Positions 20,119 through 21,414 are shown, numbered from the stretch's first letter. The stretch is 64,000 bases of DNA from Gammaproteobacteria bacterium (GCA_028817225.1 JAPPQC010000026.1:8631-72630), one strand, 5' to 3'. Made by a program: numbers and translations. Notes: generated from the letters alone by a model not told the origin.

Positions 20119-20890
20119 AGTCGGAGCCGAGGTACACCTCGCGCACCGTCTCGTCGGCGAGAATCTCCTCCGGCGTGCCGCGGGCGATGATGCGCCCGCG
20201 GTTGAAGATGTAGCCGCGGTCGCAGATTTTCAGCGTCTCCCGGACATTGTGGTCGGTGACGAGCAGGCCGATGCCGCGCCGTTTCAGTTGCAGCATCAGT
20301 TTCTGCACTTCGGCGACCGAGATCGGGTCAATGCCGGCGAACGGCTCGTCGAGCAGCATGAACGCCGGCCCGGTCGCCAGCAGCCGCGCGATTTCCACGC
20401 GGTGGCATTCGCCGCCGGACAGCGAGATGCCGGGCTGGCGGCGCACGCCGTGCAGTTGCAGTTCGTCGAGCAGTTGTTCGAGGCGGTGCTGCATCACATC
20501 CGGCGTCATCGCCGGGCAGGTTTCCAGCGCCGCGCGGATGTTGTCCTCGACGCTCATCCTGCGGAACACCGACGATTCCTGCGGCAGGTAGCCGATGCCG
20601 CGCGCGGCGCGCTCGTGCATCGGCAGCGACGAGATGTCGGCGCCGTTGAGTTCGGTGCGGCCGCTGTCGGCGCGTATCAGGCCGACGATCATGTGGAAGG
20701 TCGTGGTCTTGCCGGCGCCGTTGGGGCCGAGCAGGCCGACGATCTCGCTGCCCGCAAGCCGCAGCGACACCGACTCCACCGCCTGGTGCGCGCCATAGCG
20801 TTTGCTGAGGCCGGTCGCCTCGAGGAAATGGCCTTTTTTCGGCAAGGGCGGCAAGGGCGGCAAGGGCGGCAAGGGCGGCAAGGGCGGCAA
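20108..20890 (-). CDS. lptB: LPS export ABC transporter ATP-binding protein LptB (start uncertain)
   Basis: 'VGLLGPNGAGKTTTF', 'LSGGECHRVEIARLL' ABC motifs. Follows lptC-lptA. There is no ATG or GTG near the conserved N-terminus. Apparent TTG starts lie inside a (GCCCTTGCC)6 repeat encoding (PLP)n. Confidence 0.85.
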   Translation of the reverse strand: MPPLPPLPPLPPLPPLPKKGHFLEATGLSKRYGAHQAVESVSLRLAGSEIVGLLGPNGAGKTTTFHMIVGLIRADSGRTELNGADISSLPMHERAARGIGYLPQESSVFRRMSVEDNIRAALETCPAMTPDVMQHRLEQLLDELQLHGVRRQPGISLSGGECHRVEIARLLATGPAFMLLDEPFAGIDPISVAEVQKLMLQLKRRGIGLLVTDHNVRETLKICDRGYIFNRGRIIARGTPEEILADETVREVYLGSDFRI

Positions 20891-20894
20891 GGGC
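20841..20894. repeat. Perfect 9-bp tandem repeat (GGCAAGGGC)x6 at the lptA/lptB junction
   Basis: Direct reading: six identical units. In the lptB frame they encode PLP repeats. Confidence 0.9.
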
Positions 20895-20910
20895 GGGGGC
20901 GCCGCCGGCG

Positions 20911-21414
20911 TCAGCGCGGTTCCTTTTTGTCGGGGCGCAGCGTCAGCCGGACGCGGTTTTTGTCCTTGGTGGCCTTGACGATTTTTTTGCGCGCGTCATA
21001 GACGATGTGGTCGCCCGACAGCGCCTTCCAGCCGTCGGCGATGCGCGCCTTGCCGCGCAGGTCCATGATGCCCTCGTCGGCGCGGTATTCAATCCGCAGC
21101 GCCTCGGCGCGCAGCGTCTGGCCGTCGCGGCGGCGCACCAGGCGGCTCGGGCCGGCGGTGGCGACGAGTTTGGAGATGGCGCCGTCCTTTGTGAAGACCT
21201 CAACGGTGTCGCCTTTCAGCGTGATTTCACCCTGGACAATCTTGACATTGCCGCGATAGACGCTGATGCCGGTTTCCTCGTTATAGACGACGCTGTCGGC
21301 CTCCAGTTCAAGCGGCTCGCCGCTTTGCTGCGCGGCGGCGGCGGCGGCGAGCGTTGCGGCCAGCAGCAGCGCCGCAAGGCGCGTGATTTCAGGGCGCATG
21401 GGTGACGCGGACAT
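20911..21414 (-). CDS. lptA: LPS transport periplasmic protein LptA
   Basis: Signal peptide and OstA-like beta-jellyroll. Lies between lptC and lptB. Confidence 0.8.
   Translation of the reverse strand: MSASPMRPEITRLAALLLAATLAAAAAAQQSGEPLELEADSVVYNEETGISVYRGNVKIVQGEITLKGDTVEVFTKDGAISKLVATAGPSRLVRRRDGQTLRAEALRIEYRADEGIMDLRGKARIADGWKALSGDHIVYDARKKIVKATKDKNRVRLTLRPDKKEPR

Follow-up and report, generated by a model that had tools for sequence, protein, structure and literature searches.

A nonamer repeat of variable copy number sets in-frame TTG codons at the lptA-lptB junction of sponge-symbiont Gammaproteobacteria

We analysed a perfect nine-nucleotide tandem repeat at the junction between lptA and lptB in a Gammaproteobacteria bacterium (GCA_028817225.1, JAPPQC010000026.1:8631-72630). 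The window is the whole stretch of 64,000 nucleotides (nt), and all coordinates refer to it. The lpt genes lie on the minus strand, on which the junction is also read: the lptA stop TGA, the spacer CGCCGGCGGCGCCCCCG, (CCC TTG CCG) x6, and then AAA AAA GGC CAT TTC CTC GAG. lptB, coding for the ATPase of lipopolysaccharide (LPS) export, is an essential housekeeping gene. The locus contains the following features, with the source of each call in brackets where one applies (ORF, open reading frame; aa, amino acids):

21389-21949, minus strand: lptC, first gene of the lptC-lptA-lptB cluster, overlapping the start of lptA (ORF list, TIGR04409)
20911-21414, minus strand: lptA, 167 aa, with its TGA stop at 20911-20913 (ORF list, TIGR03002)
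20108-20845, minus strand: lptB counted from the last TTG of the array (245 aa), or up to 20890 if counted from the first TTG (ORF list, TIGR04406)
20894-20910, minus strand: C-rich, non-coding spacer CGCCGGCGGCGCCCCCG of 17 nt, separating the array from the lptA stop
20840-20893, minus strand: nonamer array of six perfect CCC-TTG-CCG units (P-L-P in the lptB frame), each with an in-frame TTG
20888-20890, minus strand: first TTG of the array, an alternative in-frame start giving 260 aa (ORF list, gene-caller choices)
20843-20845, minus strand: last (3'-most) TTG, giving the 245-aa product MPKKGHF... (one-copy relatives, sister-clade ATG, NCBI/ENA annotation)
20832-20839, minus strand: A-rich stretch AAAAAAGG (Lys-Lys-Gly) directly 3' of the last unit
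20846-20875, plus strand: G-quadruplex motif (GGG-N6)x3-GGG, GGGCGGCAAGGGCGGCAAGGGCGGCAAGGG, on the template strand of lptB (regex scan, motif match only)

The identity of the three genes is supported by NCBIfam profiles. LptB matches TIGR04406 with 337.4 bits against a cut-off of 240, passing the equivalog test, while LptA reaches 105 bits against 71.7 for TIGR03002 and LptC 80.8 bits against 38 for TIGR04409. The window LptA also has an exact protein match in GCA_028817535.1, and the order lptC-lptA-lptB is kept in all related loci. Positions 2-238 of the 239 in TIGR04406 are matched by residues 23-259 of the 260-aa LptB form, and LptB chains in the PDB (6mjp, 5l75, 4p31 and others; E-values 1e-82 to 1e-85) align over residues 23-260. 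Since both the profile and the solved structures begin at residue 23 of the longer form, it is the 245-aa form that has an ordinary LptB N-terminus. At its other end, lptB overlaps by 11 nt (20108-20118) a convergent plus-strand prolyl-oligopeptidase (S9) gene ending at 20118, so that lptB is the last gene of the lpt cluster here; in E. coli, lptB is followed by rpoN.

The array stands far outside chance expectation. Tandem Repeats Finder reports 20840-20896 with period 9, 6.3 copies, 100% matches and a score of 114, and a search for the exact pattern CCCTTGCCG matches six times in direct succession at 20840-20893 of the minus strand, equivalent to GGCAAGGGC x6 on the plus strand at 20841-20894 in the phase of the preliminary description of this DNA. 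Its lag-9 self-match run of 48 compares with a mean of 8.8 and a maximum of 13 in 200 first-order Markov simulations of the window, and is the longest run of any period from 4 to 15 within the 64 kb. These are short units, head to tail, in a number beyond chance, as in a variable-number tandem repeat (VNTR) or simple sequence repeat (SSR). Elsewhere in the window the nonamer occurs as eight isolated single copies, and the exact-pattern search found no second array of it in the 64 kb. The perfect sixfold repeat between the lptA stop and the start of lptB, as first described, thus holds.

Translated in the frame of lptB, the array gives (PLP)x6 and runs on into KKGHFLEATGLSKRYG, which bears out the earlier reading of a (PLP)6 stretch fused in frame to the LptB N-terminus. 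Nine being a multiple of three, every unit stays in this frame, which is open up to the first TTG of the array. Neither ATG nor GTG occurs in frame between the lptA stop and the conserved LptB core; the earliest GTG in this frame (20770) already belongs to the conserved first strand of LptB. TTG is the only start available, and only inside the repeat, as had been noticed. The placement of the repeat 20 nt after the lptA stop needs a correction: that distance applies to the first TTG, but not to the first base of the repeat, which lies 16-17 nt past the stop. Two antisense ORFs crossing the array on the plus strand, 20802-20978 with a (GKG)n translation and 20249-21001 with (RQG)n, were taken as shadows of lptB and lptA and set aside.

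Further information was obtained from relatives. We collected 28 loci (L001-L028) by exact protein look-up plus one genome-collection pattern scan; the same record was reached twice in two cases, L001/L008 and L002 with the contig of P0124. Twenty-five of the 28 belong to one clade of sponge symbionts ('Ca. Porisulfidus'-like Gammaproteobacteria), and all are consensus metagenome assemblies. The genome-collection scan returned two species representatives only, and pattern scans of the JGI metagenome collection gave no match, though JGI contigs with the locus were retrieved by exact protein look-up. The junctions are as follows:

Window and L016: six units after the spacer CGCCGGCGGCGCCCCCG
L014: four units, the third being CCCCTGCCG
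L015: three units after a spacer identical to that of the window, CGCCGGCGGCGCCCCCG
L009: three units after the spacer CGCCGGCGGCGCCCCGCCTCCCG
L017: three units, the last being CCCTTGTCG, after the same spacer as L009
L001/L008: two units, again after the L009 spacer
L004 and L006: two units after the spacer CGCCGGCGGCGCCCCCGCCCCCCG
L005: two units after a spacer ending ...GCGCCCCGCCCCCCG
L018: two units, the last being CCCTTGGCG
L013: one unit after a 24-nt spacer
L007 and L010-12: one unit after a 29-nt spacer
L003 and L024-28: one unit (TCCTTGCCG)
L019 and L020: one unit
L002, more distant: TAA plus 17 nt, then one unit, TTG TCC CGA ACG AGT CAT (MSRTSHF)

Within the clade the copy number is therefore 1, 2, 3, 4 or 6, differing among close genomes as in a VNTR. 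Moreover, every allele has lptB in frame with a TTG start, in agreement with the earlier expectation that copy-number changes would keep the frame. A sister clade (P0002; L021-23), 84% identical, lacks the repeat and has an ATG at the homologous codon, after GGGAAACAACGT. The one-copy state looks ancestral.

To compare the flanks, we masked the junction and aligned about 3.7 kb of the surrounding sequence. The three-copy locus L015 shows no difference from the six-copy window over 3,712 aligned flanking bases, and the flanks of L016, with six copies, are likewise identical to those of the window. The one- and two-copy alleles are 18-26 substitutions away from the window, except L005, at 104. 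A second lineage, about 92-93% identical to the window (a difference of about 7-8%) and 95% identical over the 1,050 most conserved bases in a separate comparison, contains one-, two- and four-copy alleles, including L014 (four) and L018 (two). Since three- and six-copy alleles share identical flanks, copy number changes faster than point substitutions accumulate; and since L014 and L018 sit in the separate lineage, expansion took place in at least two lineages. The repeat is thus real and polymorphic, with fast turnover relative to point substitutions; the variation among strains for which the preliminary description asked to look is present, and its interpretation is supported. Presumably the array arose by slipped-strand duplication of the start-codon nonamer.

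As every locus comes from a metagenome assembly known as consensus sequence only, one may ask if six copies are an expansion by the assembler, or the lower numbers collapses. We regard this as very unlikely. At 54 nt, the array is below the length of a read and also below the k of 141 to which contig names beginning with 'k141_' point in several ENA assemblies. Alleles of one, two, three and four units recur in NCBI, ENA, JGI and Logan assemblies, and each allele is linked to single-nucleotide polymorphisms of its own in the flanks. The six-copy allele itself was found again in L016, a separate assembly whose contig coordinates cannot be those of the window's assembly.

Other short repeats close to the array also vary. 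The spacer upstream of it (20894-20910) is hypervariable, a (C4-6 G)n tract of one to three units with single-base differences in the C runs among near-identical strains (L001-L013). Only a few bases away from the lptB array, L014 and L018 have a second tandem duplication of 9 nt, GAACCGCGG GAACCGCGC, at the 3' end of lptA (homologous to about 20914-20925); their LptA ends ...EPREPR*, as against ...KKEPR* in the window. A perfect (GCG)6 at 21332-21349 encodes an alanine run in the signal-peptide region of LptA (LAAAAAAQQ); it is constant in the 99% clade and different in more distant lineages.

The start of lptB can be approached from the alleles with few copies. In L004, L006 and L013 the TGA of lptA is in frame with lptB, and the TTG is the sole NTG codon before the conserved core; this leaves TTG as the start by elimination. 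Spacers of 17, 23, 24 and 29 nt, some differing by non-multiples of three, shift the CTG of CTGA out of frame, so that nothing upstream of the array is coding. On these sequence grounds, the TTG is shown to be the start in one-copy alleles, and the spacer to be non-coding. Translation from the CTG of CTGA, from another upstream codon, or as an LptA-LptB read-through fusion with the whole junction coding, is hardly credible: the CTG is in the lptB frame in the window and in L001, but L004, L006 and L013, with CTG out of frame and TGA in frame, refute it. Besides, LptA is periplasmic and LptB cytoplasmic, and a fusion of the two would therefore make no sense.

The TTG start is conserved across the clade at the position of the sister clade's ATG, and L002 ('Ca. 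Porisulfidus') also has TTG; for this reason the duplicated nonamer is taken to include the ancestral start codon. TTG is a legitimate bacterial start codon. The first account, which saw no canonical lptB start here, was right that only TTG is present, but it overstated the oddity, as the codon is conserved clade-wide and NCBI annotates the 245-aa form. The conditions that it named as refuting the observation do not hold as worded: the start in relatives is indeed defined, but consists of this very TTG present as a single copy, and the six-copy allele recurs in the independent assembly L016.

The 245-aa LptB, read from the last TTG, begins MPKKGHFLEATG... and is annotated by NCBI and ENA. It is 100% identical to P0001, the representative of a 19-member cluster named 'LPS export ABC transporter ATP-binding protein [Gammaproteobacteria bacterium]' at NCBI. 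Translation from the first TTG gives 260 aa with 15 extra residues, M(PPL)5. Other members of the P0001 cluster are called at 248 aa (MPPLPKK), 251 aa (MPPLPPLPKK) or 254 aa (MPPLPPLPPLPKK), upstream TTGs having been taken in L016 (248 aa), L015 (251 aa) and L014 (254 aa). The called lengths differ because gene callers pick different TTGs; the array thus explains four lengths, 245, 248, 251 and 254 aa, for one protein, and automated start calls at this locus are not to be trusted. The N-terminal peptides that would distinguish the two kinds of start are (M)PPLPPLPPLPPLPPLPK for an upstream TTG and (M)PKK-/GHFLEATGLSK for the last one. Distant LptB homologues (P0097, P0100) are annotated with Ala/Pro/Thr-rich N-terminal extensions of 45-50 residues (290-294 aa), which may be either genuine or due to miscalled starts.

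Which of the six TTGs is used cannot be read from a ribosome-binding site. No Shine-Dalgarno-like purine-rich motif occurs within 20 nt of any TTG of the array, making a choice on that basis impossible, and many other genes of the window, lptC and lptA included, also lack such a motif. On the mRNA strand, 65 nt of the junction comprise 38 C, 17 G, 10 T and no A; AAAAAAGG, directly after the last unit, is the sole A-containing, low-structure part of the junction region according to sequence and accessibility model. The junction has a minimum free energy of -48.6 kcal/mol, compared with a mean of -50.8 for 200 shuffles (z = +0.63), of which 152 fold at least as well; an explanation by structured RNA was therefore rejected. 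Unstructured leaders support Shine-Dalgarno-independent initiation, and we tentatively read the junction as a leader of this type. In ViennaRNA partition-function models of synthetic alleles with one to eight copies, the last TTG was always the most accessible, with a mean unpaired probability of 0.44-0.49 against 0.28-0.46 for the other TTGs.

With a confidence a little better than even, we favour the 3'-most TTG as the principal lptB start, the extra units mainly lengthening the untranslated spacer and some upstream initiation giving a harmless PPL-tailed proteoform. According to this model, lptB of this clade starts at a TTG without Shine-Dalgarno sequence, in a C-rich, G-poor and unstructured leader, 17-32 nt past the lptA stop. 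Slipped-strand duplication of CCC-TTG-CCG would then copy the start codon in frame and generate a hypermutable, frame-preserving VNTR in which any copy number leaves a usable start and an intact lptB frame. The 3'-most TTG, at the ancestral position and followed by AAAAAA, would stay the main start; it is favoured because it is the ancestral site and the most accessible one in folding models. With extra units, the untranslated C-rich spacer that separates the start from the lptA stop would grow from about 27 nt to 65 nt, and minority initiation at upstream TTGs may add a short, probably harmless tail of PPL repeats. Both the identity of the TTG used and the near-neutrality of the variation are what we infer from these comparisons. 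An essential gene can tolerate such instability since each unit keeps the reading frame and re-creates the start; a hypermutable repeat may thus occupy the initiation codon of an essential gene harmlessly.

Several observations weigh against this preference. The accessibility differences are modest and fold models are noisy at 66% GC. All six TTGs share an identical context from -12 to +6, and the first one, 20 nt past the lptA stop, has the upstream context of the sole TTG in one-copy alleles. If a ribosome terminating at lptA were to scan, it would prefer this first TTG and produce the full (PPL)5 tail. In addition, selection could explain equally well the six perfect units and the expansions that took place independently in two lineages, and the window and L016, the two six-copy assemblies, may derive from one sample.

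Some of these points would suit initiation mainly at the first TTG, in which case the array would be coding and LptB would bear a polyproline-like (PPL)n tail whose length follows the copy number. We consider this unlikely, though it is the main rival. Every unit is in the lptB frame, which stays open as far as the first TTG. The distance of this TTG from the lptA stop is 17-32 nt across all alleles, compared with 17-65 nt for the last one. Prodigal-type callers picked upstream TTGs, and weak support for the tolerance of an N-terminal extension comes from 4wbs_A, the best-matching solved LptB chain, which aligns a proline-containing stretch before the core; part of that stretch may be an expression tag. 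Against it, the last TTG is ancestral, since one-copy alleles and all outgroups give the 245-aa protein, the folding models assign lower accessibility to the upstream TTGs, and a PPL tail is found in no relative outside the species-level cluster. The literature on translational coupling cuts both ways: the nearest start is favoured when reinitiation or scanning occurs, but coupling is generally weak at long positive spacings, that is over at least 20 nt (PMC12548453). De novo initiation is favoured on the latter ground, reinitiation at lptB by the ribosome that terminates at lptA being possible.

A further alternative is that copy number tunes LptB output and that the variation is held by selection. 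Possible routes are the multiplication of weak starts, a longer unstructured landing pad, a C-rich, G-poor Rho-loading site in untranslated RNA, or a template-strand G-quadruplex at four or more units. Some of the evidence is in line with it. Turnover of the array exceeds that of point substitutions, expansion occurred independently in two lineages, and the junction is C-rich and free of A. The array is one of two G-quadruplex motifs found on both strands of the 64 kb (at least four runs of three or more G, loops of 1-7 nt), and lies on the template strand of lptB; the predicted motif, a repeat of d(GGGCGGCAA)n, arises once the array has four units. Transcribed SSRs are known to exert graded control, as in hmw of Haemophilus influenzae (PMC12721329) and the promoter repeats of Mycobacterium tuberculosis (PMC12817950). 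We nevertheless find this explanation doubtful, as the total spacer varies freely from 33 to 71 nt without a compensating pattern, the junction has no stable RNA structure, promoter or terminator match or Rfam family, and lptB, being an essential housekeeping gene, is an atypical contingency target. Specifically, a promoter scan found no site in 19900-22400, the terminator-like matches in that interval are only antisense, inside lptA and at chance level, and at gathering thresholds the window matches only rRNA and tRNA families in Rfam, none at the junction.

As a more speculative proposal, improbable to our minds, the repeat could be a 'start-codon cassette' in which slippage would adjust, heritably and reversibly, how much of the essential LPS-export ATPase is made and/or which N-terminal proteoform of it. 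It would do so by multiplying in frame a weak TTG devoid of Shine-Dalgarno sequence; from four units on, the G-quadruplex motif of the template strand and a lengthened untranslated tract rich in C would be added. If so, symbiont lineages in different sponge hosts could tune envelope biogenesis in this way.

The lptB array is a known kind of element, a 5'-end VNTR/SSR, in an unusual position. Contingency loci with repeats at gene 5' ends have been described in Neisseria, Haemophilus and others (PMC3899988). Like them, the lptB array is perfect, short and at the 5' end, its copy number varies among near-identical strains, and slipped-strand mispairing is the presumed cause (PMC3899988). It differs in its 9-nt unit, which contains the start codon and brings neither frameshift nor ON/OFF switching, in its target, an essential cytoplasmic ATPase and not a surface or host-interaction gene, and in its host, an uncultured sponge symbiont. 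The ON/OFF switching of phase variation in the strict sense, by frameshift or by promoter spacing, is not matched by the junction: a 9-nt unit cannot frameshift, and the promoter scan found no promoter-like site there.

In the 5' untranslated region of H. influenzae hmw1A/hmw2A, the heptanucleotide (ATCTTTC)n grades expression; it forms a long hairpin with a G-rich arm that is cleaved by RNase III (PMC12721329). The lptB repeat is similar in that it is probably transcribed ahead of the coding region and its copy number could grade expression, but shuffle-tested folding found no stable long hairpin of the hmw type at the junction, and the lptB repeat, unlike that of hmw, includes the start codon. 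Promoter and in-frame tandem repeats vary in M. tuberculosis (PMC12817950), and the lptB array shares with them a unit that is a multiple of three, polyphyletic expansions and contractions, and a GC-rich genome. Unlike in-frame coding repeats, it stands at the extreme N-terminus or start site and not inside a repetitive surface protein, and is coding only as a candidate. Mycobacterial interspersed repetitive units (MIRUs) at start codons also sit at stop/start junctions within operons and preserve downstream translation, but they are longer, dispersed and apparently mobile, with an ORF of their own coupled at -4 nt (PMC12548453), whereas the lptB array is a local 9-nt duplication without stop/start overlap and without other arrays of its kind in the window. 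In a limited literature search we found no described case of a repeat unit that is the initiation codon of an essential gene.

Copy number at this junction could serve as a fast strain marker for sponge symbionts. If it affects the level or the N-terminus of LptB, the locus would illustrate how mutation can tune LPS transport by degrees in a symbiont that is uncultured.

Two other features of the window were observed. About nine imperfect 12-nt units with CCTGAAACA fill the whole intergenic gap at 11775-11881 (minus strand), flanked by a gene of the MbnB/TglH/ChrH family (DUF692; 12721-11873, minus strand) and a DUF2063/NGO1945_C gene (11784-11002, minus strand); this array has the top Tandem Repeats Finder score of the window, 115 against 114 for the lptB nonamer. 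The rRNA layout at 42966-51676 is unusual: tRNA-Ile and tRNA-Ala are followed by a 23S rRNA (43308-46191) without a 16S upstream in the window, and the 5S rRNA (51561-51676) lies 5.4 kb beyond the 23S, with a glucose/sorbosone dehydrogenase (46442-47746) and a TonB-dependent receptor (48961-51357) in between.

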